DNA of 64,000 nt from an uncultured Victivallales bacterium (GTDB lineage Bacteria; Verrucomicrobiota; Lentisphaeria; Victivallales; UBA1829). The position numbers and the translations under genes are program-made. The DNA is taken from contig CALXRL010000031.1 of NCBI GenBank assembly GCA_944390735.1, forward strand, positions 8,955-72,954, given 5' to 3'. The notes under the pieces were generated by a model. It searched no databases. It worked only from the letters and a program-made list of their open reading frames with translations, and was not told the origin of the DNA. Shown here piece by piece: positions 5,781-36,968 of the stretch. Within the stretch, counting starts at the first letter, position 1. Each line of letters opens with the position of its first letter.

Positions 5781-6074
5781 GGCAACAGCTCCCGGTTCCG
5801 GTCCAGACAAGTTCCGCGCCGTTCCGGACGTGGCGGACCGCGGATCCACTGTCCGATCGCATTCCCGCTCCGATTCCTTCCGGAACATGCGGCGCATTTA
5901 CGTTCCGTCAATGTAGCCTGCTTCCTCGAAAAATCAAATCTCTCCAAGCGGATTTTTTTCATGCGGGAGTTCTTTTTCTCCGGGAAGAGAGGTGTTCCCG
6001 GAAAATGTTTTTGCCGGATGGAACAATAAAATCCCTCTTTCCCGCGTTTTATGCGCAAAACGGGAGAGCAAAAG

Positions 6075-6683
6075 ATGAAATTTCTTCAGAAAAGACAAAA
6101 CTTTACATTGATGGAACTTCTTATCGTTGTTTCTGTCATTTCCATTCTGGCAGGACTTCTTCTTTCCGCGCTGAATTCGGCGCGGGCGAAGGCGCAGAGC
6201 GTCAGCTGCAGGAGCAATCTCCGGCAGCTGGGAATCGCCTTCAAGACATACAGCGGCGATTACAGGCGGATTCCGACGGTCTGTGTGATGCCCTCCAAAC
6301 GGAGCGAGGCGGAAAAAACCTTCGGGAATCCCTCTTATCTCCCGAGCATCCGGGAACTGCTGGAAAACGAGATTGCCGGCGGCGGGAATGTGTTCCGCTG
6401 CCCGTCCGACCGCGGCGCGGCGGAAGATCCGATCGGTCTCTACACCGATGAGGAGGATGACGACTCCGTGAAAAACACCGGAGCCGATTACTCCGTCAGC
6501 GATGGCGCCAGCGATTTCGAACGCGAGGGTTCCAGCTATGAATTCAACGGTTTTATGCTCCGGGTGAACGACCGGAGCCGCGCAATGCTGATGCACGATT
6601 ACCGTCCTTATCACGGAACGGCGGGAACGCCGGGGGCGGCAAACTATCTTTTCGCCGACGGTCATGTCGGGGATCTTCAATAA
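6075..6683 (+). CDS. Pseudopilin-like protein with prepilin-type N-terminal methylation domain (DUF1559 / H-X9-DG type)
   Basis: MKFLQKRQN|FTLMELLIVVSVISILAGLLLSALNSARAKAQ..C..NLRQLG, and a C-terminal YLFADGHV motif. SD gggagag lies 6 nt before ATG 6075. Confidence 0.85.
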   Translation: MKFLQKRQNFTLMELLIVVSVISILAGLLLSALNSARAKAQSVSCRSNLRQLGIAFKTYSGDYRRIPTVCVMPSKRSEAEKTFGNPSYLPSIRELLENEIAGGGNVFRCPSDRGAAEDPIGLYTDEEDDDSVKNTGADYSVSDGASDFEREGSSYEFNGFMLRVNDRSRAMLMHDYRPYHGTAGTPGAANYLFADGHVGDLQ

Positions 6684-6696
6684 GGATTGTAAAAAA

Positions 6697-7329
6697 ATGG
6701 TCAATTTTCCCGGGAATCATTTGAAATTTCCGCGAATTGCGGTTATTCTGTTGACAGTCATCGGAATGGCAGCCGTTTCCCTTGTGCTCCTTTCGACGCC
6801 TGAGCCGAAGTCGGACAAGCTGGAGGATCTGGCCGCGTTTCTCGCATCGCCGTCGTTCCGGAAACTGCCGGAGGCGAAACAGGAGGAGTATCTCAAGCGG
6901 ATGCGTCCGTCGCGGGAAAACCGCGGAGAGTTCCGCCGGGTCGCCGCGGCCATGACCGACGAACAGCGCAGGGCGATGTTTGAAAACATGCGTATTCTTC
7001 ACGAGAAGAGAAGAGTGGAGGAGCTCCGGGCATATTTCAAACTGTCGAAAGCGGAAAAACAGGAGTTTCTGGACCGGAAGATCGCCGAACAGGACCGCAG
7101 AATGGCCGAGTTCGCCAGACGGCGCGCGGAACGGGAAAACGATGGAAGCCGGGACGGGGCGGCGCGGGAACGCCGTCCCTCCGGAGAACAGAGAGCGGCG
7201 ATGCGGAAGACCCGGCTGGAAACGACTCCTCCGGAAGTCCGGGACGCCAGACAGAGGTTCTTTCAGGACATGTGGAAGCGCCGCGCGGAAACCGGCAGAA
7301 TGCCGGCTCGCGGAGGTCCGCCGCTCTGA
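6697..7329 (+). CDS. Hypothetical membrane-anchored protein with Arg/Glu-rich helical region
   Basis: MVNFPG..IAVILLTVIGMAAVSLVLL is a single TM segment, followed by charged helical repeats (EQRRAMFENMRILHEKRRVEELRAYF..). Follows the pseudopilin-like gene directly. Confidence 0.6.
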   Translation: MVNFPGNHLKFPRIAVILLTVIGMAAVSLVLLSTPEPKSDKLEDLAAFLASPSFRKLPEAKQEEYLKRMRPSRENRGEFRRVAAAMTDEQRRAMFENMRILHEKRRVEELRAYFKLSKAEKQEFLDRKIAEQDRRMAEFARRRAERENDGSRDGAARERRPSGEQRAAMRKTRLETTPPEVRDARQRFFQDMWKRRAETGRMPARGGPPL

Positions 7330-7664: not shown

Positions 7665-8717
7665 ATGACGGAGGATCTGGCCAGCCGGATTCTCTCGGGA
7701 GAACTTCCGGTTCGGAGGCAGCTGCCGACGACGCGGGCGCTTGCCAAACTCTATCAGGTTTCGACGGTGACTGCAAGCCGGAGCATCGGCGAACTCAAGC
7801 GACGGGGACTGGTTGAGGCATATCCCGGAATCGGACTCTTTGTTTCGTCTCCCGGGGAGGAGGAGAAACGGGCCTTCCGGAATGCTCACTGCAGCTTTCA
7901 TGTGGGGCTGATTCATCAGAACAAAGCCGGTTTTCATGTGACGGGGGACATTCATTCGGCCTGGTATATCGATCATCTGATGGATGAGTGGATTCAAGGA
8001 GCGGTGCAGCGCTGCGAGGAGTTCGGGTTCCGGTACACGCTGTTCGATCATTTTCCGGAGAGGGGGGATCCCTGTGACGCCTATCTCTGTTCGACCACGG
8101 TTGTGCGCTGGGAGCTTATTTCGGAAATGACCCGGAAACCGGTTCTGTTTCTGTCCTCTCGTCCGCCGGAGGATTTTTCCATTCGGGAGAGCTGGATCTC
8201 GGCGGATCTTTATGCGATGTCGCGGACCGTTGTCTCCCGGCTGATTGAGCGTGGTTACCGGCGGATCGCCTGCTTGTGCGGGATTGACCTCCCGGCGTAT
8301 CACTCCCGGGTGAAGGCGTACCGGGATGTGCTGGAGGCGGCCGGTCTTCCCTTCCATGAGGAACTGGTCTTCCGTTCGGACAGCAGTGAATGGGAGATCC
8401 GCAAGCAGATCGACAAACTGCTTGCGCTTCCGGAAGAGATCCGGCCCGATGCGGTCTACTGTATCAGCGACCGGCGCGCGATTCTTCTTCAGGAGCGTCT
8501 GAGGGAGTTGAAAATCCGAGTGCCGGAGGAGATGGCTATCATGGGGTTCGACGGCTGTGAAGAGGCGCGGCGACGGGGCATCAGCACCATTACCATTCCT
8601 GTCCGGGATATCGGATCCTGGGGTATTTATTTTCTGAACGGGTGGAAGACGGGAATTCTGCATCCTCCGTTTCACTTTCTGTTCTGTGGAGAGATGTATC
8701 CGGGTGAGACTTGTTAA
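7665..8717 (+). CDS. AraR-type chimeric regulator (GntR winged-HTH + LacI/PBP1-type sugar-binding domain)
   Basis: N-terminus [41 protein letters not shown] (GntR HTH). C-terminal pattern [50 protein letters not shown] (LacI-family effector domain). Confidence 0.8.
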
Positions 8718-8767
8718 AACTTGTTTCACTGATTTTTCTTTTTCCCGTTTTTTTCCCGCGATCCATA

Positions 8768-8796
8768 TTGAATTTTTTTTCGGGGTATCGTATAAT
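8768..8796 (+). promoter_or_regulatory. Near-consensus sigma70 promoter for the pseudopilin-like/CAZyme operon
   Basis: TTGAAT, exactly 17 nt, TATAAT. Located 67 nt upstream of ATG 8863. Confidence 0.55.
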
Positions 8797-8862
8797 GAAA
8801 GCATGGAAACGGAGAACCTCTCCGCTTTTTCCAGAGAGAACAACGAAAAAGGAAGATGTAAA

Positions 8863-9591
8863 ATGAAACGGTGCAGAAAAAAATTTACATTAATAGAACT
8901 TCTGGTTGTGATTGCTGTGATAGCGATTCTTGTTTCACTTCTGCTTCCCGCATTGAGCAAGGCGCGGGAATCCGGAAGAAACATCTCCTGTGTCAGCAAT
9001 CTGAAACAGATCGGAACGGGCCTTGCCATGTACGCAAACGACTACGACTTCTATCCGGCGGCATGTCCGGAAACCGGGGAAACGTATACGCAGAACTACT
9101 GGCATTTCAAGGTGAGGCCCTATCTGGGATATCAGCGGGTTCCGAAAAACTGGACAGAAGCGTCGTTGTTCCGGCGGGAAGGAGTTTTTTTCTGTCCGTC
9201 CACGGACATTCTGTACAATGACAGCGGGTTTTCAGACACGCTCTCCTACTCCATGAATTCCTTCGGTTATCTGGTTTCCTACAAAGCATTTACGCCTGCA
9301 AGTGCTCTGGACGCACCGGCCACTCTTTATACGCCGTATTATACAAAATCCTCCAGCAGAAGCAAGGAATATTCGCCGGGGAAAGTCATTTTTGTCAGTG
9401 AACTGGGACGGAACGTCAGCGACGAAAAGGGGTATACGCATCCGGCCATCCGGAATTATGATTTCTACATCGGAGGCGGCGAAAATTTACCCTCATTCCG
9501 GCATCTGGGGGCAAAAAATTCCCTTCAGTTCGATTTGCATGTGGAACGGGTGATTCTGCCGAGAATCGAATGGTATCTGACACTGAAATAA
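8863..9591 (+). CDS. Pseudopilin-like protein with prepilin-type N-terminal methylation domain (DUF1559 type)
   Basis: MKRCRKK|[44 protein letters not shown]. The C-terminal motif is degenerate (FDLHV). The 59-aa N-terminal extension in the ORF track is non-coding and contains the promoter. Confidence 0.85.
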
Positions 9592-9609
9592 AAGCATTGG
9601 GAGCAAACA

Positions 9610-12543
9610 ATGAATTTCCGCATTCTTTCCGCCGTCTTCTGCAGTCTTCTAATTTCCGGAACACTTTTCGCCGCCGTCGCTGTGGATTTCTCAAAAGATT
9701 CGCTGATCCATTATCCGCTTCCGAATCATCCGGAGGATCGGATTCGGATCGGAAAATCGGAAATTCCGGGAAAAGGAAAAACGGGAGTCTCCCTTTCCTG
9801 GGAGACGGAACATTATCATTACACGCAGACTGGAATTCTCAGGAACCCGCTTCCGGAGTTTCAGAAATTCCGGAAAATGGAACTGATGTTGAATGTGTTT
9901 GTGGAACCGGGAAGCAGGGTTTCCCAGTTCGGACTGCGTTTCCGGGATGCGGAAGGGGAAATCTTTCAGATCTCCTCGGAACGACTGACGTCGGGAAGCA
10001 ATGGAAATCAAAGAATCGCGCTGCTTTTTGATGCGGAAAAACTTCCTCCGTCCTGGGGAACGAAACAGAACCGGAAAATCGACTGGCCGCTGCGATTGTT
10101 CGGCATGACGGTTTCCTTTCCTCCCCAGAGCGGCCGGGGAAGGGTCGTTTTCGAATCCATCGAAACTCTGAATCCGGATCGTCTTCTGGATTCCGTGGAG
10201 GTCAGGACGGATACGGGGCATCCGCTTCATCTGCTGCTTTCCGAACATGGGAATCCGCGTCTTTCCTTCCGGAACACGCTGAATCGGCCGGTCTCTTTTC
10301 TGGCGGAATGGAAGCTTTCCGATTTCCGGGGCAAAACGCTGGCGGCCTCCCGGAAACGGATGAATCTGCCGCCGGAAAATACGATCGCCGTTCCCATTCC
10401 GGGGAAATTTCCACTGGGAATCTTTTATGTCGATTACAGACTGAAGATGACGGACGGTTCCGGAGAAACGTCCGGCAGACGCTCGTTTGCCTTCCTTCTT
10501 TCTTCCGGAGAAAAAAAGGCTCGGCAGGGAGAATTTCTGTTCGGCGTCTGTTCCCATCCGGGACGAATTCCGCCGGAAGAACAGGAGCTGGAGGCTCTTG
10601 CGGCTTCTCTCTGCGGAGCACGGTATCTGCGCACGGGAATCTCCTGGGAAAGTCTCGAACGGCAAAAAGGAAAGCGCGATTATTCCCGTTTCGACCGCGT
10701 TGTCGATACGTTCCTGAAATATGGCATTGAAACGCAGGTCCTTCTTGCATTCACCCCCCGCTGGGCCGTTTCCGGAGAAGGAAGTCCCGTTTATCCCAAG
10801 GACCGCAGGCTCATGTTCCGACTCCCCGATTACGATGCCTATGCCTCTTTCGCAGAGGAAACGGCTCGACGCTACAAAGGAAAGCTGCGCTTTTTTGAGA
10901 TCTGGAACGAACCGGATATCTCATTCGGAAATTTTACAACGGAGCAGTACCTCAAACTTCTCCGTGCCGGATATGAAGGTGTCAAACGGGGGAATCCGGA
11001 AGCCGTCGTCATGACCGGCGGTTTCACCTATATGCCGCTGAGCGATGTGCCTCCGAAACCAGGAATGATGCGCCGGACACTCATCGAAGGAAAAGGCTTC
11101 TATGACATCCATGCGTTTCACGGCCATGGTCCCTTCGAACATTACCGGCCGCAGATTCCCGCCATGCTCGAAATGCGGAGGAACGGCAGGATCTCGGCGC
11201 CATGGTATGCCAATGAGACCGCCGACCATTCGATTCGCGGAGAGGTCCATCAGGCTGTCACGCTGTTTCAGAAACTGATTTTCAGCTGGGCAAACGGAGC
11301 CATGGGCTACAACTGGTACGATCTGCGGAACGATGGATATGATCGTTATGAGAAAGAACATAATTTCGGGATGCTGACACGCGATTTCCAGCCGAAAGCG
11401 GTCTATCCGGTTTACGGGATGCTGACACGATTGTTCGCTCCGGCCTCTTTTCGGAAAACGAGGAATCCCGGCGGAGGAATCTATCTGTATGAGTTCGAGA
11501 CGCCCGGGGCAGTTCTTCTCCCGATGTGGCGCGACGAGGGATCATTGCCCTCCGTCCTGGCATGGAAGACGGATGCCCGGAAAGCGGAGGCGGTGGACCT
11601 GATGGGCAACAGAACCGCGCTTGCCATGGAGGCCGGATTCGTGCTGGCGACTCCGGAACAGATTCCCTGTACGCTGATTCTCCATGGAGCGAAAAAAGTG
11701 GAGTTTGCCGGATTCGCGGTTCAATTCACTCAGCCGGGACTTCAAATTCCGGGGACTCCGGCCTATCTGCCCTTTGTTCTTCAGAATCCGTTCCCGCAAG
11801 AGCGTTCCTTCCGGATCGGAAGCGGATCACATTCCGCCGTGTATCCGCTGAAAGGCGGGGCGGAACAGCGGATTCGTATTCAGACCGATTCTCCGGAGTT
11901 CTGCTGGCAGCTGGGCGACTCCTTCCGGGGAACGCTTCCGGTTTCGTTTCTCCGGGCCCGTGTGATTTCAGCGGAAGCGCACCGGAAACCGGACTTTGTG
12001 CTGAACCGGGATGAGAACCGGGTGGAGCTCTTTCCCAACAATCCCCTGATGCGGCACATGACCTGGAAAGGGCCGGAGGATCTTTCCGCGGAAATCCGGC
12101 TCAGTCTCCGGAAGGATTCCCTGATCCTCGAGGCGGAAGTGGTGGATGACCGGCATGTTCAGCCCTATGCCCGGTCCATGGTCTGGCAGGGGGACAACAT
12201 TCAGGCGGCGTTCCGGTTTCCGAATCAGACCGGGAACTGGGAGATCGGTCTGAGCCGCCTTGATTCCGGGAAGGCGGAAGTCTTTTTCTGGGACGCTCCC
12301 CGGAAGGCGGATCCATCCGCCGTTCGACTCTCGACGGATCGGAAGGGCAACCGGACATGTTACCATGCGGAGATTCCCTTTTCCCTGTTCGGAATCAGAC
12401 GCGGGGATCTCGCCTGCGGATTCCGCTTCAATCTGCTGGTCAACGACAATGACGGCGATGGACGGAAAGGATGGCTGCAGATCGCTCCCGGTCTTGGAAA
12501 AGACAAGTCTCCCGTTCATTACCCCGTTTTGATTTTCCCCTGA
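9610..12543 (+). CDS. Secreted clan GH-A (GH5/GH39-like) glycoside hydrolase with C-terminal CBM9-like domain
   Basis: 977 aa. Signal peptide MNFRILSAVFCSLLISGTLFAA. Acid/base motif FFEIWNEPD, later ANETA. C-terminal NLLVNDNDGDGRKGW is CBM9/DOMON-like. Confidence 0.7.
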   Translation: MNFRILSAVFCSLLISGTLFAAVAVDFSKDSLIHYPLPNHPEDRIRIGKSEIPGKGKTGVSLSWETEHYHYTQTGILRNPLPEFQKFRKMELMLNVFVEPGSRVSQFGLRFRDAEGEIFQISSERLTSGSNGNQRIALLFDAEKLPPSWGTKQNRKIDWPLRLFGMTVSFPPQSGRGRVVFESIETLNPDRLLDSVEVRTDTGHPLHLLLSEHGNPRLSFRNTLNRPVSFLAEWKLSDFRGKTLAASRKRMNLPPENTIAVPIPGKFPLGIFYVDYRLKMTDGSGETSGRRSFAFLLSSGEKKARQGEFLFGVCSHPGRIPPEEQELEALAASLCGARYLRTGISWESLERQKGKRDYSRFDRVVDTFLKYGIETQVLLAFTPRWAVSGEGSPVYPKDRRLMFRLPDYDAYASFAEETARRYKGKLRFFEIWNEPDISFGNFTTEQYLKLLRAGYEGVKRGNPEAVVMTGGFTYMPLSDVPPKPGMMRRTLIEGKGFYDIHAFHGHGPFEHYRPQIPAMLEMRRNGRISAPWYANETADHSIRGEVHQAVTLFQKLIFSWANGAMGYNWYDLRNDGYDRYEKEHNFGMLTRDFQPKAVYPVYGMLTRLFAPASFRKTRNPGGGIYLYEFETPGAVLLPMWRDEGSLPSVLAWKTDARKAEAVDLMGNRTALAMEAGFVLATPEQIPCTLILHGAKKVEFAGFAVQFTQPGLQIPGTPAYLPFVLQNPFPQERSFRIGSGSHSAVYPLKGGAEQRIRIQTDSPEFCWQLGDSFRGTLPVSFLRARVISAEAHRKPDFVLNRDENRVELFPNNPLMRHMTWKGPEDLSAEIRLSLRKDSLILEAEVVDDRHVQPYARSMVWQGDNIQAAFRFPNQTGNWEIGLSRLDSGKAEVFFWDAPRKADPSAVRLSTDRKGNRTCYHAEIPFSLFGIRRGDLACGFRFNLLVNDNDGDGRKGWLQIAPGLGKDKSPVHYPVLIFP

Positions 12544-12586
12544 AATGAAAAGGAACCCAGATGCCGAAAACAGAGAGGTCATCCCG

Positions 12587-14371
12587 ATGAATTCGATCCG
12601 GATCGCTTTCCGCGACTTTCTGCGCCCCGATACCAAAGAGGACGCTTCCGCCGCCTTCCGAGCCCTTTCGGAACAGCTTGCCGGGCTTCCCGGCGACTCT
12701 CCCGTCTCCGTTCACTTCGAGCCCGGAAGGTATGATTTTTATGAAGAAGGCGCCTTCGAACGCGTCTGCTACATTTCCAATCATACGCAAACCCGTCGGA
12801 AAAAGATCGCTCTGCTGATCGAAAACCGCAGAAATGTCATCCTGAACGGCAACGGCGCCCGGTTCCTGTTTCATGGAACGCTCATTCCGGTCGCTTTTCT
12901 CCGGACCGAAAACTGCGTGCTGAAAAATCTCTCCATCGACTATGAGTTTCCGCAGCTTCATCAGCTTGTCATCCGGGAGGTCGATGAGCTCCATGACGAG
13001 CTTGTCTGTGAACTCCTGCCCCGGGAGGAGTTCCGCATCAAGGACGGCTGCCGCCTCCGCTTTCTTCACGAACACAATCCGGAGTATTCCCTTCAGTCAA
13101 TCATGCCTTTTGAGGAAAACGGAAGACTCTGCTGGAACAAGGCGGATCTCTCATTTCAGCCGGAACGGATTGTCGATCTCGGCAGCGGCAGACTCCGGCT
13201 CCTCTCCTGCGGTCTCTCCGGACTCCGGCCCGGCTGCCGACTGGTCCTGCGTCCGGCGCTGCGCCCGACTCCCGGAATTTTTCTTCATCACGCCGACCGC
13301 ACAGAAATCGAACAGGTCACCGTGCACTATGCGTTCGGCATGGGACTTCTCGCCCAGATGACCGAAGACATTACTCTCCGTTCCTTCTCCGTCCGGCGCA
13401 GGAGTCCGGATGATCCCCGCTTCTTCACCACTCAGGCGGACGCCACCCATTTCTCCGGATGCAAAGGCCGGATCCTTTCCGAAAACGGTCTCTACGAGGG
13501 CATGGCCGATGACGCCATCAATGTGCACGGAATCTATCTGCGCATTCTGGAACAACGGGACCGCCGGACTATCCGCGCCTCCTATATGCACCGCGAAACC
13601 TGGGGATTCGACTGGGGGGAAAAGGGGAATGTCGTCTGCTTCCTCCGCTCGCGCACCATGGAATATGAACCGGAGAAACGCCGCATCGCCTCCATCCGGC
13701 CCGTGGATTCCGATACCGAATCGGGGGCGAAGGTGTTTGAAATCGTCTTCGAGCAGGATCTTCCCCCGTTTGCTCCCGGGGAACCGTACGGAATCGAAAA
13801 CCTCACCTGGACTCCGGAAGTCCTGTTCCGCAACAACATCATCCGGAACAACCGTGCTCGCGGGGCTCTGTTCAGCACTCCGAAACGGGTGGTCTGCGAG
13901 AACAACTTCTTCGATCATACCCACGGATCCGCCATTCTGCTCTGCGGGGACTGCAACGGCTGGTTCGAAACCGGAGCCTGTCATGAGGTCTTCATCCGGA
14001 ACAACCGCTTCCGGAACGCGCTCACCGCCATGTATCAGTTTACGGAGGCCGTGATCTCCATCTATCCGGAAATTCCGGACCTGAGTGCGCAGAAACAGTT
14101 CTTCCATTCGAACATCACCATTACGGGAAATACCTTTGAGATCTTTGATGCGCAGGTCCTTTACGCGAAATCAACGGAACACCTTATTTTCTCGGACAAT
14201 ACCATCCTTCACAATCACGATTTTCCGCCATTTCATCGGAACCGGTTTCTGTTCCTGCTGGAAAAAACCGCGGATGTCCGCATCGTGAACAATCATTTCG
14301 ATGTTCCGTTTGTTCCGGAAAAAGACATCTGCATCCGGAACGGCAACCCCGGTGCTGTCACTGTAAGCTGA
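12587..14371 (+). CDS. Right-handed beta-helix glycosidase, GH110 (alpha-1,3-galactosidase)-like
   Basis: GRYDFYEEGAFERVCYISNH...NGNGARFLFHGTLIPVAF..LKNLSIDYEFP, and later NNRARGALFSTP. I recall this pattern from GH110 beta-helix enzymes. An alternative start at ATG 12545 exists; 12587 has the better SD (agagagg). Confidence 0.6.
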   Translation: MNSIRIAFRDFLRPDTKEDASAAFRALSEQLAGLPGDSPVSVHFEPGRYDFYEEGAFERVCYISNHTQTRRKKIALLIENRRNVILNGNGARFLFHGTLIPVAFLRTENCVLKNLSIDYEFPQLHQLVIREVDELHDELVCELLPREEFRIKDGCRLRFLHEHNPEYSLQSIMPFEENGRLCWNKADLSFQPERIVDLGSGRLRLLSCGLSGLRPGCRLVLRPALRPTPGIFLHHADRTEIEQVTVHYAFGMGLLAQMTEDITLRSFSVRRRSPDDPRFFTTQADATHFSGCKGRILSENGLYEGMADDAINVHGIYLRILEQRDRRTIRASYMHRETWGFDWGEKGNVVCFLRSRTMEYEPEKRRIASIRPVDSDTESGAKVFEIVFEQDLPPFAPGEPYGIENLTWTPEVLFRNNIIRNNRARGALFSTPKRVVCENNFFDHTHGSAILLCGDCNGWFETGACHEVFIRNNRFRNALTAMYQFTEAVISIYPEIPDLSAQKQFFHSNITITGNTFEIFDAQVLYAKSTEHLIFSDNTILHNHDFPPFHRNRFLFLLEKTADVRIVNNHFDVPFVPEKDICIRNGNPGAVTVS

Positions 14372-14428: not shown

Positions 14429-14812
14429 TTACACCGGGGTGTCCGTCTGTCGGTCAAACACCTCCTTGGCGAGAAAGACCGCATTGACCGCGGCGGGAAA
14501 TCCCGCATATACCGCAAGCTGAATAAACACCTCCAGAATCTCTTCCTTCGAGATGCCGACATTCAGCGCCATATTGATATGCGATTTCAGCTCCTCCTTC
14601 GCATACCCCAGGGAAGCAAGAGAAGAGAGAATCACCAGTTCCCGCTCCCGCTTGCCGAGTCCCGGACGGGAATGCACATCCCCGAACGCAAACTCCTTGA
14701 TGTAGGTGTTCAGATCGGGCGCGATCTCACACAGTTTCGCTCCGATGGGGCTGTTGTTGTTCATCTCCCTGAGCCGGTTCCATCCTTTTCGATAGCGTTC
14801 GGATTCTTCCAT
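14429..14812 (-). CDS. Carboxymuconolactone decarboxylase (CMD/AhpD-like) family protein
   Basis: 127 aa. [80 protein letters not shown] is the typical CMD-family core. Confidence 0.85.
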
Positions 14813-15747
14813 TTTTCCTTTTTTCCGTTCTGTTCTGTTTTTGCTGTGTTGATTATGTTCAGACCGAATCCGGAGAGAATCCGTTCGGCGTGTTCCATGT
14901 CCTGCGCGGAGGGCGCGGGGACGGACGGCATGGTGTCCGCATGTCCCACCGTCTCATATTTGGAACGGGCCAGGGAGTGATAGGCCAGCAGCCGGACCGC
15001 AGTGATGTTTTTCCGTCGGGAAAGGAACGTTCCGGCCCCGATGAGATCCGGATCCGACAGATTGTATTCCGGAATCAGCGGCATCCGGATTTCAATCGGC
15101 ACTCCGCATTCGGAAAGGCGGGTCAGGTTTTCCAGAATCCGCTCGTTGGGCGCCCCGGTGAACTCCCTGTGTTTCCGGGAATCAATCTCCTTGAAATCGT
15201 AGAGGAAGAGATCCGTCAGCGGCAGCACGCGCTCGAAGGCCTCCCACGGCACATTGCCGCAGGTATCGACGGCGCAGGAGATGCCTTCCTTCTTCAGAAT
15301 CCGGAACAGTTCCGCGCAGAATTCCGCCTGAAGCAGCGGTTCGCCGCCGGAAACGGTGGCTCCTCCGTTGGAATATTCATAAAAAATGCGATCCTCCAGA
15401 ATCCGGTTCGCGGCCTCTTCCGCGGAGATCGGCTGTCCGTACAGAACCAGAGCGTCGTACAGACAGGCGGAGACGCATTTTCCGCAGGCGATGCATTCGG
15501 AGCGGTCGATCCGGTGTTCGTTCCCGGCAAACGAATGGCAGTGGCGCGGACAGACTCCCGCACACGCTCCGCAGAGCACGCATTTGTTTTTCCGGAAGCC
15601 GAGTTCCGGCTCGCGGCGGACACTCTCCGGATTGTGACACCAGACGCATGCCAGAGGACACCCTTTCAGAAAGAGAGTCGTCCGGATTCCCGGTCCGTCA
15701 TGCACGGCGAAGCGTTTCCATTCGACCATGAATCCTTCGGTTTTCAT
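14761..15747 (-). CDS. Glycyl-radical enzyme activating enzyme (radical SAM)
   Basis: 328 aa. [25 protein letters not shown] (CX3CX2C) plus two ferredoxin-type clusters [12 protein letters not shown] and [15 protein letters not shown] overlap with the upstream GRE gene. Confidence 0.93.
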
Positions 15748-17852
15748 GCGATGTTCTCCGCCTGTGCAATGAAGGTGTTCTGCTCCTCGGGACGCAGGTC
15801 GGTGAACCGCACGTTCCAGCCGCAGACGCGCACCTGAAGATTGGTATACTTTTCCGGATGCCGTTGTGCATCCCGGAGCGTTTCGGCATCGAAGATATTG
15901 AACTGAAGTCCGCTTCCGCCCGCGGCGATGAAGGCCCGGATGATCGCGGTCAGGACCTCGATTCCCTCCTCTCCGCGGACTGCGCTCGGATGAAGCATCA
16001 GATCCAGGCAGGTTCCGCAGGGAAAGGCGGAAAAATCAAGTTTCAGCACGGAATTCATCAGGGAGGTGATTCCGTTTTTATCCATCGGAATGCAGGCGTC
16101 CATGTTTTTGGAAACGGGAGTTCCGGCTTTTCGGCCGTCGGGAAGGGCGCCGATCTGTTTGCCGCGCTCCACGACGGACTGTCCGTAAAGAGAGGCAAAG
16201 AAATGTCCGCCGCGCGCGTTCTCCTGACGGTTGACCAGCGGGGAGACAAATTCGGCGATTTCGCGCCCGATCCGATCCGCCCTTTCATCGTTGTTGCCCC
16301 ATTTCGGCGCACGGTTCCGGGCGATCATCCGGAGCTTTTCCCAGCCGTTCCAGTCGGCGGCAAGCGCTTTGCGCAGTTCCGGAAGCGTGCAGAGCTTCTC
16401 CTGATACACCAGAAATTCCACGGCCGCCAGCGAATCCACCGCCTCGGCGAAGAAGCTGATGACGCATCCGGTGCTGTTGTATTCCACGCCGCCCTGCGAG
16501 ATATCCCGTCCGGTCTCCATGCAGTGGGCGAAGGAGCCGGCGAGAAACGGCGAGGGATTCACTTCGCTCCAGAGTTTCTCGCAGCGGCACTGCTGCTTCC
16601 GCAGAAGAAGAACATCCTCCTCCATCATCTCGAAATACGCATGTTTGAACGCTTCAAACGTGGGATACTCCTTTCCGTTTCGCAGCTCCTGAAGGAGGAT
16701 CGCGGGCAGGTAGAGATGGGTCGCTCCGGAGGTGGAAATCTCCTTGCCGAGCACGGCGGGTTCGTAACAGCCGATGGGAATGAAATTTTCCGCATCCTCG
16801 CGGGTCCGTCCATGCCGGACAAGTCCCTGAATCACGACGTCATTGTTCAGAAAGACGATTCCGTTGCGGCCGTCGCGAATGTTTTTTGCGGCAAGCTCCA
16901 GAAAATCCTGCGGCGTGTCCGGCGTGACCCGGACGGAGAGTTTCGGATCAACCGTGTTCATCTTGTGATACACCTCCATCCCGAGATACGACAGTTCGTT
17001 GATTTCCGGTCCGAAACAGAAATTCTTCCCGAAGCGTGTCCCCTGCCATTTCGCATAGAAGGCGATCCAGAAATATTGAATCAGTTCTTCCGCCGACTCC
17101 CTGGTGAGGCGTCCGGCCTTGAGATCGCGGCGGTAGAAGTCGATGTACAGGCGGTCGAACCAGCCCATGGTGCGGACCTCCTCTCCCTCGATTTCCTGAA
17201 GATCATGAAACAGATACGCCAGCTGAAACGCCTCCCGGAGCGTCTGCGGCGGCCGTTCCGCAAGAGCCAGAAGTGCCTCGTTTCCGGAGGCTTTCCCCAG
17301 ACGGCGGCAGAGTTCAATGGCTCCGTCATACACCATCACCGCGGCACGGTGCAGAGCGGTGGACCCTTTCGCTGCCCGGTCGCGCAGACCGGGAAATCCG
17401 AGTTTCAGAATCGCCATCCAGTCGGGGGAGGTGTGGCTGGTGTCGATCATATAGCCGATGGAATGCTCCATGTCGATTACGAACATCTTCTGATCTCCCG
17501 GCACGGAATGATCGGAAAACTCCTTCGGCCAGAGTTCATCGACCCATTTCCAGCGAAGTTTCTGAAACAGAGATGCGCAGGGATCCACTTTTCCTGCGAA
17601 ATAATTGTCGGGCTCCGGAGCAATCCGCGCTTTTGTGCAGACCAGATGAAGCAGAAAGGCTTTGGTCAGGACATGCTCCTCTCCGGGATTCTCCCGGCAA
17701 TGCGCTTCAAAAAGCGTCTGGATTCCCTGCTCATCCAGGCCGCTTTCCGGATCGTAGACAACATGTTCATACTGTTTTTCCAGACGTTTTCTGGCTGAAT
17801 CAAACAATTCCATAATGGCACTCCTTTCGGGAAAAGGAAATCCCGTTTTCAT
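15744..17852 (-). CDS. Glycyl radical enzyme, PFL2/dehydratase-lyase class, substrate unknown
   Basis: 702 aa. Glycyl-radical motif [12 protein letters not shown] at the C-terminus. Thiyl loop IPIGCYEP (Cys-x-Glu). GGVEYN and ALPDGRKAG are conserved GRE blocks. Confidence 0.93.
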
Positions 17853-17861
17853 TCCAGGTAA

Positions 17862-18560
17862 TTATGTTGTCATCTGGAGGTACGCTTCAAAATAGCGTCG
17901 TCCCAGTTCGCGTGCGGATGCGGAGGAGAAATGCAGTCCGTCGCCCTTGTCCGTCAGGCCCTCCGCGGAGACCAGGGTCAGATCCGACAGTTCGGTGACA
18001 ACGTTCCGGAGATCGGCGTCGATCCGCGGAAAATCATAGGGTCCGCCCTTCCGATAGTGTCCCAGTTCCCCGCAGAGAAACGGAACTTCGGAAAGCGGCA
18101 GATCCTCGCGAAAGTTCCGGATAACCTCTTTCAGATCCTCGGCATAATGAGGATTTTTCTGTTTGGCATCGGTCTCCCCCTGATGCCAGAGCACCGCGGC
18201 GAACCGGCCCCGTTCAAGCGCGGCTTTTGCCCGCCGTACTGCCTCGTCATACGGATGCTCCTGATCGTTCCACGGAGAACATCCGCCCCGTTTCCATGCG
18301 GAAATGGGAGTCCCCCCGACCGCGGTCGGAACTAAACCGACTGTGCAGTCCGGATTGGCCTCCAGCAGAAGTCGTCCGAATGTGCGCCCCGGACCGACGC
18401 CTGCAAATGCGCGGTCCTCCGTCACAGGCTCCACCGCCGGCACCCATTGCAGATCGCGATTGATCTTCATGAGTCCGGGAATTTCCACCCGGTCTTCCTC
18501 TTCCACTTCTCCGCGACCGGCCATGTTGGATTGTCCGGCAAGAAGCACAAGGAGCCACAT
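17862..18560 (-). CDS. SASA-family (sialate O-acetylesterase-like, SGNH) esterase, no signal peptide
   Basis: MWLLVLLAGQSNMAGRG (GQSNM block), ..WHQGETD... Only the C-terminal 232 aa of the 560-aa track ORF look coding. A GTG 5 codons upstream (18575) is an alternative start. Confidence 0.8.
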   Translation of the reverse strand: MWLLVLLAGQSNMAGRGEVEEEDRVEIPGLMKINRDLQWVPAVEPVTEDRAFAGVGPGRTFGRLLLEANPDCTVGLVPTAVGGTPISAWKRGGCSPWNDQEHPYDEAVRRAKAALERGRFAAVLWHQGETDAKQKNPHYAEDLKEVIRNFREDLPLSEVPFLCGELGHYRKGGPYDFPRIDADLRNVVTELSDLTLVSAEGLTDKGDGLHFSSASARELGRRYFEAYLQMTT

Positions 18561-18710
18561 TCCTTTTGTTTTCACCTTTCCGTTCCCCTTTGTTTTCTGA
18601 AGAACCGTTTTCCTTTTTCTGTTCTTTATTATAGCTTTTCCGAATGAAAATGGAATGCACGAATCCATCAGAATATTATGATTTTGTGACATTGCCGGAA
18701 AAAAGAACAG

Positions 18711-18739
18711 TTGAAAAAATATGAGAAACGCGGTATAGT
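18711..18739 (+). promoter_or_regulatory. Sigma70-type promoter of the AraC regulator
   Basis: TTGAAA, 17 nt, TATAGT, then SD aaggag and ATG 18762. This argues against the TTG start at 18711 used by the ORF track. Confidence 0.5.
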
Positions 18740-18761
18740 CCGAAAGCAAGGAGATTCTCTT

Positions 18762-19583
18762 ATGGCCGTCGAAGATAAAAAAGACATCTATCGCCTGGCA
18801 GACAGTCTGAACATGCGGTTTTCCCATTTTGCCAGAGGGACGTATCCCTGTTGTTCCCGCACCCGTTTCACGGTCAACCGCCTGATTCTGGTTCTGGAAA
18901 ATCCGAACGGGGAGGAGAACTGCATGGCGGATGATTCGGAACATCATGTCATGGTTCCGGGAAACTTCTATCTGGCTCCGGCGTTTCACAGCACCATTTT
19001 TCATTTTGACGAGGGGGTGCGTTTTTTTTCCATCCACTTCAATCTGGAGCTGTTTCCGGGAGTGGATCTGTTTTCCCGTCAGAACCGGATTCTTCACGGG
19101 AGTGCGGAGAATGTCATGGAGCGGACGGAATCGGCGTTCTCCAACCGGAGCGGACTGGCGGGCGCGCTGGAACTGAAAACCCTGATCTATGATCTGGTCT
19201 CGGGCTGTCTGAAACAGATGGATCCCGGGAGTCTGGAACTTGTTTCGCGATTCGCTCCCTATCAGAAGCTCATCGACTACATTTCCGGTCACTGCACCGC
19301 TTTGCTCACCGTGGAGGATCTGGCGCAGCAGATGAAGATGCGGCGCGATGTCTTTTCCCGCAAATTTAAAGCCGACACGGGCATTTCGCCGAAACGCTTT
19401 TTCCACCGTCTTCTTGTCGACCGGGCGACGCAGCTTCTCCGGATGCCGGACATCACCGCCCAGGAGGTCGCCTTTCAGCTGAACTTCAGCAGCGAATACT
19501 ATTTTTCCCGTTTTTTCAAACAGCATCTGGGGATTTCCCCGCATCGGTTTCAGCAGCAGTACCGGATTCGGAAAATGGTGTGA
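18762..19583 (+). CDS. AraC family transcriptional regulator
   Basis: C-terminal double HTH: TVEDLAQQMKMRRDVFSRKFKADTGISPKRFF..AQEVAFQLNFSSEYYFSRFFKQHLGISPHRF. N-terminal cupin-like sensor. Confidence 0.9.
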   Translation: MAVEDKKDIYRLADSLNMRFSHFARGTYPCCSRTRFTVNRLILVLENPNGEENCMADDSEHHVMVPGNFYLAPAFHSTIFHFDEGVRFFSIHFNLELFPGVDLFSRQNRILHGSAENVMERTESAFSNRSGLAGALELKTLIYDLVSGCLKQMDPGSLELVSRFAPYQKLIDYISGHCTALLTVEDLAQQMKMRRDVFSRKFKADTGISPKRFFHRLLVDRATQLLRMPDITAQEVAFQLNFSSEYYFSRFFKQHLGISPHRFQQQYRIRKMV

Positions 19584-24443: not shown

Positions 24444-25064
24444 CTAGTCGATCTGATGGACGGTGATGTCTTTGAAGAGGACCCTACCGGTCCCCTGTTC
24501 CAGGCCATAGATCAGGCAGAATGTTGCGCCGTGGGGAAGACGGTATGTGAAGGAACACTTTCTCCAGTCGAATTTTCCCGCTCCGACTTCGCAGGCGGGC
24601 CATTGGGTCTTTCCTCCCGAGACAGGGACAAATCCGCCGAACTTGACGTTTTTGACATTTTCCGAGTGTTCCAGCCGAATCATTCCTTCAAAGAGATAGG
24701 TCTTTCCGGGTTCCAGCTTCAGCCAGCGGTGGACGACGGAGCGTTTGCCGCTTTTTGTGTTGTCGATCACATTCGGCTGTTTTGTTTCAAAACGGTACAG
24801 GATATTTCCGTCGGGTTGGTCGACCGGCGGTTTTTCCTGTTTTCCGGAGAGGAGATCGCGGGTGGTTTCGAGGGTCAATTTCGTCTCTTTGAGTCGGGAG
24901 GATTCCTCCAGAAGGGCGTTTTTCCGGGATTGAAGGTTCGCGAGCTCGCGGCGCAGCGACCGGTTGCGTTGCAGCGGATTGTTTGCCCATGCCGGAACGG
25001 TCGGCAAGGCGAGGCATGCAAGCAGAAAAAACAGCATTGATTTCATCGGTTGTTTCCTTTTCAT
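24444..25064 (-). CDS. Secreted protein with coiled-coil segment + CBM4/9-like jelly-roll domain
   Basis: Signal peptide MKSMLFFLLACLALPTVPAWA. Heptad-like LRRELANLQSRKNALLEESSRLKETKLTLETT. C-terminal beta-rich domain ending GRVLFKDITVHQID. The start abuts the stop of the upstream GH2-like gene (TGAATG). Alternative start at 25046. Confidence 0.6.
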   Translation of the reverse strand: MKRKQPMKSMLFFLLACLALPTVPAWANNPLQRNRSLRRELANLQSRKNALLEESSRLKETKLTLETTRDLLSGKQEKPPVDQPDGNILYRFETKQPNVIDNTKSGKRSVVHRWLKLEPGKTYLFEGMIRLEHSENVKNVKFGGFVPVSGGKTQWPACEVGAGKFDWRKCSFTYRLPHGATFCLIYGLEQGTGRVLFKDITVHQID

Positions 25065-28000
25065 TCAGTTTGCGTTCCGGAGGCGGTAATACGGAATGTT
25101 TCCAAATCCCGGTTTATTCACATACCCTTTGCGGTCGCCGAGGTGGAGAGTTTTGGATGCGGTTCCGTCGGTGAACGTGTAGGTTCCGGGAGAGTCGAAC
25201 TGGAACCAGGCTTTGCCATTGCGGTCGGAACGGACGCCGTACCGCTCCCCGGTGGCGGAGAGGCTCCAGACATCGGTTGCCGGCGCGGTCTCGACAATGC
25301 ACTCCGCGTCGCTTCCGGTGCGAAGGGGCGGCTGTGGAATCAGCGTTTCCCGGTAAGCGTCGTTGACCGCGTTGCGGATATGCGAGGGGTAGCGCTCATC
25401 AAACCAGTTGAATGCGGTATTGGCGTAGTTTTTGGCCACGATGGACGTGGAGATCTTCCGTTCGCCTCTGCCGGAATAGGCCGGCCACGGGATTCGGAAT
25501 TTCGGATACTCATCCGCTTTTCTTCCCGGGGGAAGGATTTTGCTGCGGTCGTATTTATCCATCATGCTCCGGGTGATGCCCCAGGGATTGCCCTTGCCGG
25601 AATCGTCCCAGATAATGAACCCGTCAAGACCGAGTCCCATGTAGATCTGGGCAGGCACCCCGAGACGGCGGTAGAGACCGGCGACTTCACGGACTCGCAG
25701 CGCCTTTTTGCGAACCTGGTCCGGAATCGCGCCGATCCATTTGTCCCATGCTCCATAGGAGCAGTAGAGCGTCTCTCCGAAAATCACGGGGCGGTATTCA
25801 TAGACCTTCTGCCAGTTTCTTACCTGACGGTCGATATTGAAATCCGGATAGTGATAATTGGCCGTGTCGCAGGGGGGATTTTCAAACCAGCGGCCTTTTG
25901 AATTCTGAGTGCCGACATCGCCGTTTCGGGTAAGCACCAGATCATGATCCAGCGTCTTCATGAATTTCTCGTACATGGCTCCGATTCTGTCATTTCGGAG
26001 ATTGAACGGCGCCTTTTCGACGGTATCCCATGCCTGCGTGAGAATTTCGTTGTCCGTGGACCAGATCACCACGCTGGGATTGTTGCGATACATGCGGAAC
26101 CACCGCCGGTAATTTCCCAGATTCCACTGGTGTGTTGCCGTTTCCGGCCAGGTCTCCAGCGGAGAGAAGTTCTTTTCATACGGTTTTTTCGTCCCCGGTT
26201 CATGAAGTTCCGGATACATCTGAACATAGGAGAGCATTCCCATCCGGTCTGTGGTGCGTGCCGCGGTTGCGCTCCAGTAGTCGGAGTCATGATAGCGCAG
26301 GATATTGATGTTGTCGTACCGGTAGAGCGGCCAGAGGACATCGCGGAAACGGGCTTCATTGCATCCGGCATGTCCGACGTCTCCCTGAAGAATGATCCGT
26401 TTTCCGTTCAGGAAGAAATCGGTGCGGTGGATCCAGAACTCCCGGAAGCCGAACGGCTGAATGTGACGATCGGCCAGTTTTCCATCCAGGTAGACATCGG
26501 TAACGAGGTCGTACATATCGGGATTTCCATATTTTCCTCCGATTCCCCAGATCAGCGGATCGGCCCAGCCGGAACGCGTTTCCACTTCCGCCGTTTTCCC
26601 GGCAGGAATCACCGTCCGGACCGGAGGAAGTTTCAAACGGATGATTCCCTCTCTCGCGGCATACTGCCGGATCTCCGCCTTGACCGGGGCGGCGGTATGG
26701 TTGACCAGTTCCGCGGAGACGTCCAGCTTGGCCTTCCGCCAGCTTGGTTTCACATACACGTCCGCCACCCGGACCGAAGGAACAAAATCAAAATAGAGGT
26801 CTCCGAGAATCCCGTACCGGGTGCTGATTCTTCCCACCTCGAATTCCAGCTCAAAAACGTTCCTTCCCTTCCGGAGATTTTTCAGTTCGATGTTCAGGAT
26901 TCCGATTCTTCCGTCATATTCTCCGCAGGGCGTGCCGTTGCAGAAAAACTTTGCCCTGCCCATGATTCCTTCCGAGACAAACACGACGCTTCCGGTCCCG
27001 TCATACTGGAAGGGAATCCGGAAAAAGGCCCGTTTTGCCGTAATGACCGGACTCAGACGGAAATCCTCATAGCCTTTATCCACCTCATAGGCTCCATATA
27101 CGTTTTTCGGGTTTTTCGGATGAACAGGGAAAGTCCCTCTGAGGAAAAAGCGGTTCATCATGCGCAGCGGCAGCAGAACCTTGTGCCAGTTTTTCCGATC
27201 CGTCGAGGCCTCCCACTCTCCATTGATGCAGAGGCGGGAGCGCAAGGTCGCGGGAGAGAGTTTTTTCGCAATGGATTTCGGGGCGTTTCCGGCGTTCCAC
27301 GCCCGCTCCTGCGCATAGCTTTTTTCCAGAGAATCATACGTCTGATTCAGCGATTTTTCCGCTGATTTGACCTCCTCCTTCAGGCGTTTGACGAGTTGTT
27401 CCAGCTTCGGAAGGGTCTGTTTCATGGAGGCGATCTGCCGTTCAAGAGTACGGTTTTCCTGTTCCAGTTTTGCTTTTGAGTAAACGGTCACCTGATCCGT
27501 CAGGACGGCGACTCTCCTTCCCTTTTCAAAGAACTCCAGTTTCAGAGGATGGGTTCCCTCTTTCAAATTCAGATCAAGTTCACGTTCAAGCAGTTTTTTC
27601 CCGTTGAAGAGAATTTCGTATTTCCGGGAAGGGCTGGTTTTGATTTTCAGTTTGTTTTTTCCTTCGAACAGAGTGGTTCCGGCGAACTGGAACGTCGCGG
27701 CACATCCGTTGTTGTACAGCGCATATCCGAGCTTCCTGCCGGGATGGTCGGAATGCACCTTCAAGCCGGGAATCGGTTTCCCGGAACGGTCCATGACGGT
27801 AAGACAGAAACCGCATCCATGCGTGCGGTCGACAACTTTCAGCAGAATCCGGTTGATTCCCGCCTCCAGACGGACCGGATAGCGGAAATTGTTCGGTACA
27901 GCCCCCTGTGAACTGTATTGCCGGCCGACCATCTTTCCGTTCAGAAAAAGTTTGTGGTCGTCGTCGGATCCGACCCCAAGAACGGCATCCATTGCATTCG

Positions 28001-28430: not shown

Positions 28431-29117
28431 TTATCGGTATTGCACAACTGGGGGTATTTTTGAAGATGGAGAAAAAGACCCCGGATCGTAAATACTTGTT
28501 CCATTGAATCGCAAGGTTCGCGCATGTCCATCCACATAGCTTATGTTGAAAAACATATTGTTGTTATGACGCCGCATGAGTTTATCATTATTCAATCCTT
28601 CTTCGACATCTCCAACATACCATTTTGCATACATCCCAATAATTCCGTTTTTGGCTGTTACATCACCGATGAGTACTTTCTGACTGGGAAGGACAAAGTC
28701 TTTTAGAGCTGTATACTCAAGTTCCACATGCCCAAGTTTTCCTGCTTGATTGTAGCCATAAGTACCAATGGTTCCGGCTGGACATTTTGCCACTCCATAT
28801 GGCGTCCAAGTCCCTGTTTGTGAATCCGGTTGCGAAATATATTTATATTCTGCTAGTTGCCTCCACCAGGACTTCTGAGTTCCGGATGTGATATTTCGGA
28901 CAGCACTTCCGGTTTCACTATCATAAAGGATAAAAGCTGTTGTCAATTGTTTGATGTTTCCTACACAACTTATCGTTCGAGCCTTGTCTCTGGCGCTGTG
29001 CAGAGCAGGAAGAAGAAGTCCTGCAAGAATTGCTATAATAGTAATTACAACAAGAAGCTCAATCAATGTAAAAAATTTCTTTGTCTGCTGAGAAGCATAT
29101 CCGTTGTTCATCATCAT
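28431..29117 (-). CDS. Pseudopilin-like protein with prepilin-type N-terminal methylation domain (DUF1559 type)
   Basis: ..QQTKKF|[44 protein letters not shown]-terminal ISYVDGHA motif. Visibly AT-richer than flanking genes. Confidence 0.85.
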
Positions 29118-36808: not shown

Positions 36809-36939
36809 AACCACCACCAGTCGATATTCTGCTCTTGTCAATCGAAGAAATATTACATCAGAATTTGTTTTTTTCGAGCGTTTTTGCAAAAAAAGATGTT
36901 TTTTTTCATTCGGAGAAGGGAAAAGCTCCGTTTCCCCCA

Positions 36940-36968
36940 TTGACAAATCCCGGGATGGTCTCTATACT
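36940..36968 (+). promoter_or_regulatory. Consensus-like sigma70 promoter of the first DUF4886-like gene
   Basis: TTGACA, 17 nt, TATACT. Located 45 nt upstream of ATG 37013. SD aaaggag. Confidence 0.55.

Follow-up and report, generated by a model that had tools for sequence, protein, structure and literature searches.

A 64,000-nucleotide (nt) stretch of DNA from an uncultured Victivallales bacterium of the gut (contig CALXRL010000031.1, positions 8,955 to 72,954), referred to below as the window, carries three co-directional gene cassettes that share one arrangement, wherein a gene for a GntR-type regulator is followed by a gene for a type IV pilin-like protein of the DUF1559 type and then by genes for glycan-directed proteins, most of which carry export signals. 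The association of regulator, DUF1559 pilin and secreted carbohydrate-active enzyme (CAZyme) is real and lies well beyond chance, and it is confined to Lentisphaerota-type genomes. DUF1559 and other prepilin-type proteins number from dozens to hundreds per genome among bacteria of the Planctomycetota-Verrucomicrobiota-Chlamydiota (PVC) group, and their function has long been unexplained. The cassettes provide a testable clue to this function, and they indicate that some members of the DUF1559 family belong to CAZyme operons under the control of sugar regulators.

Among the chief bacteria that break down complex and sulfated glycans, in guts as well as in the sea, are the Lentisphaerota, Kiritimatiellota and Planctomycetota, and to our knowledge these phyla do not possess SusC/D systems. 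How phyla of this kind organize the capture, secretion and uptake of glycans is the question that the cassettes address. The order of regulator, pilin-like gene and CAZyme, and its repeated occurrence in this DNA, had been put forward in an original prediction. Both are confirmed by open reading frame (ORF) listing combined with Pfam and NCBIfam hidden Markov model (HMM) scans, and with a motif and HMM scan for pilins. The genes of the three cassettes are as follows.

Cassette 1
7626/7665-8717, plus strand: regulator 1, a GntR winged helix-turn-helix (HTH) domain joined to a LacI/GalR-type sugar-binding domain, an AraR-like chimera
8863-9591, plus strand: pilin 1, 242 residues, DUF1559 (PF07596, 40.9 bits)
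9610-12543, plus strand: 977-residue exported enzyme with a Sec signal peptide, a core resembling the TIM barrel of glycoside hydrolase (GH) clan GH-A, and a weak tail resembling carbohydrate-binding module (CBM) family CBM9; begins after a gap of 18 nt
12545-14371, plus strand: 608-residue homologue of GH110 alpha-1,3-galactosidase (PDB 9i4f); the ENA call starts at 12587

Cassette 2
29133-30113, minus strand: regulator 2, a GntR-type HTH (26.6 bits) followed by approximately 260 C-terminal residues without an assigned domain
28431-29117, minus strand: pilin 2, 228 residues, beginning 15 nt past the regulator 2 stop; TIGR02532 at 20.6 bits and a GspG-like N-terminus
25065-28421, minus strand: 1118-residue exported GH2-like enzyme (Glyco_hydro_2, 5.4e-8; Glyco_hydro_2_C), beginning 9 nt past the pilin 2 stop
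24444-25064, minus strand: 206-residue exported protein, the last gene, with a signal peptide and a weak CBM4_9-like C-terminus (CBM_4_9_1, E 0.011)

Cassette 3
46792-47862, minus strand: regulator 3, a GntR (2.8e-15) and Peripla_BP_3 (2.6e-14) chimera
45930-46742, minus strand: pilin 3, approximately 270 residues, DUF1559 (PF07596, 33.2 bits; N_methyl, 28.9 bits), with a canonical RH..DGH motif
43584-45926, minus strand: 780-residue exported protein of the polysaccharide-lyase type (DUF4962, 7e-52; Hepar_II_III_C, 1e-14); begins after a gap of 3 nt

Recurrence of the cassette in related genomes

Two samples of loci were used to count how often this arrangement occurs. The first comprises 80 loci from GTDB species genomes, which were collected with the pilin-family alignment and searched for genes by means of an ORF finder together with pilin and regulator HMMs. 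The Lentisphaerota set (26 loci, 374 kb) was selected by similarity to pilin 1, and the comparison set consists of 63 pilin-like genes from Planctomycetota and Verrucomicrobiota, with a few from Armatimonadota and Methylomirabilota. The second sample comprises 80 metagenome loci, blind to taxonomy, representing distant family members that were returned by an alignment-based rescan. Furthermore, the Pfam-annotated contexts L082 and L085 to L091 were drawn from an independent resource. Gene calling in the sampled loci is crude and the sample sizes are small, and the counts below should be read in this light.

A regulator of the GntR/LacI type, present as a full-length chimera, stands directly in front of 11 of the 26 focal Lentisphaerota pilins, compared to none of 63 in other phyla. 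Pfam matches among the upstream neighbors (n = 36) are dominated by Peripla_BP_3 (13) and GntR (11), with LacI (3) and AraC (1) also represented. Because the regulators are too divergent (14-24% identity) for a regulator-centered collection scan, those detected by HMM in the locus flanks served as a sample that is independent of the focal pilin. Four of these nine regulators are directly followed by a pilin gene, and two more of the nine share an apparent operon with one. The background density is 0.037 pilins per kb, or approximately 4% of genes in the Lentisphaerota flanks, and these numbers yield a binomial p value of approximately 3e-4; the regulator class itself makes up approximately 2% of genes. 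Thus, the statistical association of gene neighbors that had been anticipated is strong in Lentisphaerota. Its proposed extension across the PVC phyla is not borne out, given the complete lack of such regulators in front of the 63 comparison pilins and the finding that merely 2 to 3 of 21 sizeable downstream genes in other phyla are glycan-related.

The genes that follow the Lentisphaerota pilins likewise point to glycan degradation. Among 29 downstream neighbors, 11 are firm CAZymes or sulfatases (GH16, GH78, GH20, two GH123, two DUF4838/GH67N, two heparinase-type proteins, an esterase resembling carbohydrate esterase family 15 and a sulfatase), four are softer assignments (LamG, CBM or beta-helix), eight lack a Pfam match and are mostly large signal-peptide proteins, and six are others. 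At the named Lentisphaerota loci, 15 of 23 downstream neighbors are CAZymes, sulfatases or lectin-like proteins. Approximately 80% of the genes immediately downstream of pilins encode a Sec signal peptide, and the gap between the pilin and the next gene in Lentisphaerota loci has a median of approximately 30 nt and is sometimes -4, which is consistent with translational coupling.

The clearest example of one pilin per enzyme is L082 (8903-20735), in which an AraC regulator precedes three consecutive pilin-enzyme pairs whose enzymes are a 773-residue beta-helix protein, a 1064-residue GH5 and AXE1 protein, and a 1818-residue GH2 and LamG protein. The order of regulator, pilin and exported protein is also present in L085, L089, L090 and L091, and L086 carries a divergent AraC gene followed by a pilin and a LamG/GH123 protein. 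The pilin had been described as the invariant first structural gene of such operons. This is too strong a statement, since the pilin gene comes last in L087, stands second or later in L022 and L026, and is an orphan in L088, whereas tandem pilin pairs occupy L006, L009, L026 and L079. In Planctomycetota and Verrucomicrobiota (e.g. L021, L047, L078, L045, L024, L060, L027 and L066), the usual downstream gene codes for a small lipoprotein of 110-200 residues, and some of these lipoproteins are homologous to each other. A pilin-like gene accompanied by a gene for an exported partner may be a general theme of PVC bacteria.

The genes of cassette 1 have been kept together as a unit in other genomes, at protein identities of 31-46%. 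A relative of pilin 1 with 46% identity (P0006) has a GntR/Peripla_BP_3 regulator before it and, after it, a 937-residue homologue of the 977-residue enzyme (32% identity, E 1e-129; L085). A relative with 39% identity (P0007) stands in front of another homologue of this enzyme (31.5% identity, E 4e-45; L092). Two closer relatives are P0004 (47% identity), which lies behind a GntR/PBP regulator, and P0003 (50% identity), which is preceded by an AraC regulator and followed by a beta-helix protein that carries a signal peptide and is a remote relative of the GH110 homologue in the window (23% identity, E 2e-16). The contexts of P0003, P0006 and P0007 indicate that the clade of pilin 1 travels with the enzymes of cassette 1, which may be of either of two unrelated folds. 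With pilin 3 as the sole query, a metagenome scan recovered no relatives, and exact look-ups of the 1118- and 780-residue proteins returned no record, probably because of differing start codons.

Stem, head and cleavage site of the pilin-like proteins

The window contains a fourth pilin-like gene, which has no regulator in front of it and lies outside any cassette. The gene after it encodes a charged membrane protein, and the pair is situated immediately upstream of cassette 1.

6051-6683, plus strand: pilin 4, 210 residues, DUF1559 with H-X9-DG (PF07596, 35.9 bits; N_methyl, 22.7 bits; TIGR04294)
6697-7329, plus strand: membrane-anchored, highly charged protein of 210-221 residues, overlapping pilin 4 or within 14 nt of it; no family match

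Pilins 1, 3 and 4 exceed the PF07596 cutoff of 23.3 bits and are thus members of DUF1559. Pilin 2 is unmatched by PF07596 at E <= 0.01, yet all the motifs and columns of the family align in it, including RH..DGH. All four proteins score above the TIGR02532 cutoff (pilin 1 has 19.5 bits versus a cutoff of 16.3), and all begin with a short basic leader, the sequence FTL(I/M)ELL(V/I)V and a hydrophobic helix. The Phe at +1, the Glu at +5 and the approximately 20-residue hydrophobic segment alpha1-N, including (I/V)IAIL, are invariant or nearly so. Other conserved features are a set of Cys, Asn, Gln and Tyr residues at the C-terminus of the helix, a second Cys within (V/F)xCP(S/A), and, at the C-terminus of the protein, the motif RH..N..DGH. 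In pilin 1, for instance, the leader MKRCRKK precedes FTLIELLVV, the conserved residues are C43, N46, Q49, Y57 and C111, and the C-terminal motif is degenerate, reading RH..FDLH in place of RH..DGH. The models for GspG (TIGR01710) align with residues 1 to approximately 60 and yield 29-38 bits, far under the equivalog cutoff of 88.85, and therefore the window proteins are not GspG.

Identity between the four paralogues of the window is 40-53% over the N-terminal 60 or so residues, whereas pairwise comparison of their heads reveals no significant similarity. An AlphaFold (AF2) model of pilin 1, built from an alignment of 117 sequences, has a mean predicted local distance difference test score (pLDDT) of 83.9 and a predicted template modeling score (pTM) of 0.83, and it consists of a helix at residues 10-60, two short helices and a six-stranded beta-sheet. 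The sole Foldseek matches of this model in the PDB are type IV pilins, and these are weak. When the PDB was searched by sequence and by profile, the matches to pilins, geopilin and GspG were confined to the stem region, and no lectin, CBM or SusD-like fold was recognized in the head by fold and profile searches. The family as a whole is vast, with 84,176 clusters at 50% identity (E <= 1e-30). Apparent pilins of 410-845 residues, which at first sight resemble pilin-enzyme fusions, are artifacts of upstream ORF extension in GC-rich DNA.

The residue at position -1 of the leader cleavage site distinguishes the Lentisphaerota proteins from the remainder of the family. Prepilin peptidase requires Gly at -1 in the systems that have been studied. 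The four window pilins carry K, F, S and N at this position and thus lack the canonical Gly or Ala. When the window sites (8842-8865, 29070-29075, 46680-46685 and 6100-6105) are compared to loci L002 to L081, Gly is present in 3 of 40 Lentisphaerota copies, in which the position is essentially unconstrained, while 59 of 59 copies from Planctomycetota and Verrucomicrobiota have Gly or Ala. The same division emerges from the taxonomy-blind metagenome contigs, on which a regulator stands in front of four of the nine pilins that lack Gly/Ala, but none of the 44 that have it (Fisher p of approximately 4e-4). Either the Lentisphaerota peptidase would have a relaxed specificity, or the pilin-like proteins would stay unprocessed. 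Because Phe +1, Glu +5 and the rest of alpha1-N remain invariant, the stem appears still to serve a filament-type machine.

Cassette regulators, enzymes and neighboring genes

Both domains of an AraR-type regulator, as originally assigned to all three cassettes, are evident in regulators 1 and 3. Regulator 1 matches GntR (1.6e-10), Peripla_BP_3 (6.1e-21) and Peripla_BP_1 (1.1e-7), and its start is at 7626 in the ENA gene call or at 7665 in the original prediction. In regulator 2, by contrast, the GntR-type HTH is the sole domain found; its PDB matches are the DNA-binding domains of YvoA/NagR and AraR, and BLAST comparison with regulators 1 and 3 revealed no significant similarity. Two candidate control elements lie within the 145-nt spacer between regulator 1 and pilin 1.

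8768-8796, plus strand: candidate promoter TTGAAT-17-TATAAT
8807-8827, plus strand: inverted repeat AAACGGAGA-n3-TCTCCGCTT, directly 3' of the candidate promoter

The near-consensus promoter that had been described is indeed present as a site, but promoter-like matches in the region (2) are no more frequent than in shuffled sequences (3.0 +/- 1.5), and so it is the position of the site that speaks for a promoter. The inverted repeat is a possible operator.

The enzymes of the cassettes vary in how firmly they can be classified. The 977-residue protein had been reported as a clan GH-A enzyme with a CBM9-like tail, and both assignments persist in weakened form, with scores below cutoff for GH39 (24.5 versus 26 bits) and CBM9_1 (E 0.0063). 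Its best PDB match, 5jvk (3e-18), is an uncharacterized protein, matches to beta-xylosidases are weak (E of approximately 1e-3), and its homologue in L085 has weak Cellulase and GH39 matches. The 608-residue protein, which had been predicted to be a secreted GH110-like enzyme, retains its GH110 identity, with matches to PDB 9i4f (E 5.1e-163, residues 27-586), 8pvs (1e-111) and 7jw4, and to the Pfam entries Beta_helix and GLAA-B barrel. It loses the predicted secretion, since no signal peptide is present, which makes the cytoplasm its probable site of action and imported oligosaccharide its probable substrate. In cassette 2, the 1118-residue enzyme matches NCBIfam beta-galactosidase models (1e-14). 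The notion that all cassette enzymes are glycosidases does not hold for cassette 3, whose enzyme combines DUF4962 with a heparinase II/III C-terminal domain and is of the lyase type.

Both exported proteins of cassette 2 are predicted to contain coiled-coil segments (residues 316-370 or thereabouts in the 1118-residue protein and approximately 31-60 in the 206-residue protein). Such segments are unusual for glycosidases and could have a role in protein-protein contacts. Three genes lie immediately past the 3' end of cassette 3 (39060-43573). One encodes an AraC regulator (41277-42167, minus strand), another, which is divergent, an FAD-dependent oxidoreductase (42290-43573; PF12831), and the third a 694-residue membrane protein without a family match (39060-41144). 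These genes may belong to the glycan pathway of cassette 3.

Elsewhere in the window, the minus strand at 14761-17852 encodes a 702-residue protein with a C-terminal glycyl-radical fingerprint, followed by a radical S-adenosylmethionine/4Fe-4S activase; no Pfam match is on record. The gene for the 702-residue protein is flanked by a CMD-family gene and by a gene for a SASA sialate O-acetylesterase (17862-19544), and its product could represent a glycyl radical enzyme of an unclassified kind, with a link to the catabolism of sugars. An FtsA-FtsZ gene pair at 34344-36946 (minus strand) indicates a chromosomal location of the window and the retention of FtsZ in this lineage of Lentisphaerota.

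Candidate roles and known systems

Our preferred reading, which we hold tentatively and with less than even confidence, is that the head of each pilin-like protein partners the exported enzyme encoded with it, either for passage across the outer membrane or for display on the cell surface. Each cassette would be a sugar-inducible operon, in which the cytoplasmic AraR-like regulator would sense an imported breakdown product and free the promoter ahead of the pilin-like gene. The pilin-like protein would then enter the inner membrane by its N-terminal helix. Since the paralogues have almost the same helix throughout, any of them could be handled by a single, common type IV filament machine, and this machine, perhaps the endopilus of a type II secretion system (T2SS) or a type IV pilus, would be encoded elsewhere in the genome. 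The head, which differs in every operon, would be an operon-specific interface to the Sec-exported enzyme encoded next, and would either carry this enzyme through the outer membrane or keep it attached to a short filament at the surface. In this manner, the shared machine would be re-programmed for whichever glycan is being sensed.

Enzyme partnering of this kind is consistent with the tight gaps between pilin and enzyme genes in the window (18, 9 and 3 nt), with the one-per-enzyme pattern of L082, with the enrichment of the arrangement and its inheritance as a unit, and with the contrast between stem and head. Moreover, DUF1559 genes across the PVC phyla are typically followed by a gene for an exported protein, as has also been remarked for T. 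immobilis (PMC8567305), and this fits a module composed of a pilin and an exported partner. Several observations weigh against it. The loss of Gly/Ala at -1 makes canonical processing by prepilin peptidase doubtful, and processing is a prerequisite for assembly in studied systems. There are no T2SS or type IV pilus machinery genes in the window, and all-against-all BLASTP of 47 downstream proteins revealed no shared docking domain among them. In some cassettes (L087, L089) a single pilin gene accompanies those of several enzymes or comes last, and filament assembly, dependence of secretion on the pilin, and contact between pilin and enzyme are all parts of the proposal that we infer.

Perhaps, instead, and as the original prediction had suggested, the variable head binds the polysaccharide that the operon degrades, and the pilin-like protein is a subunit of a retractile type IV pilus or short surface fiber that has a SusD-like function and reels in glycan, either to the surface of the cell or as far as the periplasm. 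We consider such a capture role possible though short of probable, and nearly as likely as enzyme partnering. Hypervariable heads on a conserved stem would be expected of it. The closest relatives of pilin 1 precede either a GH-A-type enzyme or a GH110-like beta-helix protein, so that the clade tracks two enzymes of one cassette rather than one fold, and recognition of a common glycan, with specificity at the level of the substrate, fits this better than recognition of a single enzyme. The cytoplasmic regulators, together with a GH110 homologue that lacks a signal peptide, imply that oligosaccharides are imported, and there are precedents within the PVC group, namely the MUL2 pilus locus in Akkermansiaceae as it is presented in a citing source (PMC13174399) and the fibers and crateriform structures of Planctomycetes in summary form (PMC12673574). 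Nevertheless, the head has no recognizable lectin, CBM or SusD fold, the cassettes lack transporter genes, and neither the pattern of L082 nor the tight coupling to the next gene is required by glycan capture. The non-canonical residue at -1 calls filament assembly into question for this role as well.

If the residue at -1 is taken at face value, there may be no filament. The protein would then remain an uncleaved bitopic protein of the inner membrane. Its head, in the periplasm, would tether, chaperone or scaffold the co-encoded periplasmic enzyme, and degradation would occur in this compartment. The scarcity of Gly at -1 in Lentisphaerota compared to its uniform conservation as Gly/Ala in Planctomycetota and Verrucomicrobiota agrees with this proposal, as does the fact that, on the taxonomy-blind metagenome contigs, the class lacking Gly/Ala is exactly the one that resides behind regulators. 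In addition, the N_methyl and SBP_bac_10 proteins of T. immobilis were recovered in its membrane fraction (PMC8567305). However, an invariant F+1, E+5 and alpha1-N would be hard to explain in a mere anchor and are typical of subunits that are extracted and packed by a filament machine, and the prepilin-peptidase specificity of Lentisphaerota could differ from that of studied systems. We regard an uncleaved anchor as unlikely. Far less probable still, and effectively excluded, is that the pilins have no specific function in the cassettes, such that the sheer abundance of DUF1559 and CAZyme genes creates the adjacency, or that the pilins merely raise general T2SS capacity. The enormous size of the family, the high share of pilin genes in Lentisphaerota flanks and the CAZyme-rich nature of these genomes could favor chance adjacency, but chance does not account for 11 of 26 pilins behind a rare regulator class, for the frequency with which regulators are followed by a pilin gene, or for the retention of cassette 1 as a unit at such low identities. 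Generic dosage is likewise disfavored by the divergence of the heads.

It is conceivable, if speculative, that Lentisphaerota run an equivalent of the polysaccharide utilization locus (PUL) that is based on a type IV filament principle, with at least a hundred interchangeable pilin-like subunits, one per glycan operon. Each operon would have its own sugar sensor, and all would share one stem and one machine, with substrate-specific heads for export, display or capture; we would not rate this version of the proposal above the merely possible. If true, it would give a function to DUF1559, which is among the largest unexplained paralogue families of PVC bacteria, and bacteria would have, in addition to Sus-like systems and cellulosomes, a third general way to forage for polysaccharides. 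The GH110 cassette, with its predictable specificity, offers a concrete inducible test case in the cultivable relative Victivallis vadensis. The loss of Gly at -1 in exactly the cassette subclass provides a second handle, which can be tested by mass spectrometry.

The original prediction had known of no description of this architecture as a system. Full-text literature searches, whose coverage leaves out most subscription journals, indeed retrieved no description of the regulator-pilin-CAZyme cassette, although flanking signal-peptide genes had already been noted in T. immobilis (PMC8567305). The window proteins belong to the DUF1559, or N_methyl and SBP_bac_10, family (PF07596; TIGR04294), with which they share PF07596, the stem, the Cys pair and RH..DGH. 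Published work on this family describes its expansion, with 68 paralogues in P. limnophila of which two are essential (PMC10632474), and with 91 in T. immobilis, as well as a location in the membrane fraction and flanking signal-peptide genes (PMC8567305), but it leaves the family unexplained and describes no such cassette. Hence, the expansion, the membrane-fraction location and the flanking genes in one planctomycete were already known. The Lentisphaerota copies differ from the remainder of DUF1559 in that they do not have Gly or Ala at -1 and are partnered with large CAZymes rather than small lipoproteins.

Pseudopilins of the GspG/PulG type in the T2SS share the F1/E5 N-terminal helix with the window proteins, and GspG is their best NCBIfam match. 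In Klebsiella, the sugar regulator MalT induces the secreted pullulanase PulA together with the pseudopilin genes of the pul regulon. This is a precedent for the coupling of a glycan enzyme to pseudopilins by a sugar regulator, but each cassette in the present case has one pilin-like gene and no machine genes, and there are many cassettes per genome. The closest published concept is the MUL2 locus of Akkermansia (Amuc_1099-1102; Davey 2023 as cited in PMC13174399 and PMC12418764), a type IV-like pilus locus tied to mucin use, which resembles the cassettes in that pilus-type proteins of a PVC bacterium are linked to the use of complex glycans. As portrayed in these citing sources, MUL2 is one conserved locus that includes PilM and a pilin of the archaeal type, and does not represent a paralogue repeated from operon to operon; CAZyme and regulator genes are absent next to it, and a different protein family is involved. 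Fibers and crateriform structures of Planctomycetes have also been proposed to participate in polysaccharide uptake (Boedeker 2017 as summarized in PMC12673574).

Modular or adhesive pilins, such as PilB and PilC of S. sanguinis (PMC8179133) and the cellulose-associated pilins of Ruminococcus (PMC3672088), embody the same idea of a common stem with a variable binding head. Their heads are recognizable grafted modules within one pilus operon, whereas the heads in the window have no fold match and their genes are scattered among catabolic operons. Finally, neither susC-like genes for TonB-dependent transporters nor susD-like genes are present in the cassettes or among the Pfam-scanned ORFs of the window. 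The original prediction had likened the pilin-like protein to a functional counterpart of the SusC/D pair, which is at most a tentative analogy. The PULs of Bacteroidota are likewise substrate-specific, regulator-linked CAZyme operons with one repeated and fast-evolving component that is not an enzyme. The cassettes differ from them in that the regulator is a cytoplasmic GntR/LacI chimera rather than a hybrid two-component system or an extracytoplasmic function sigma/anti-sigma pair, and in that the repeated component is pilin-like.

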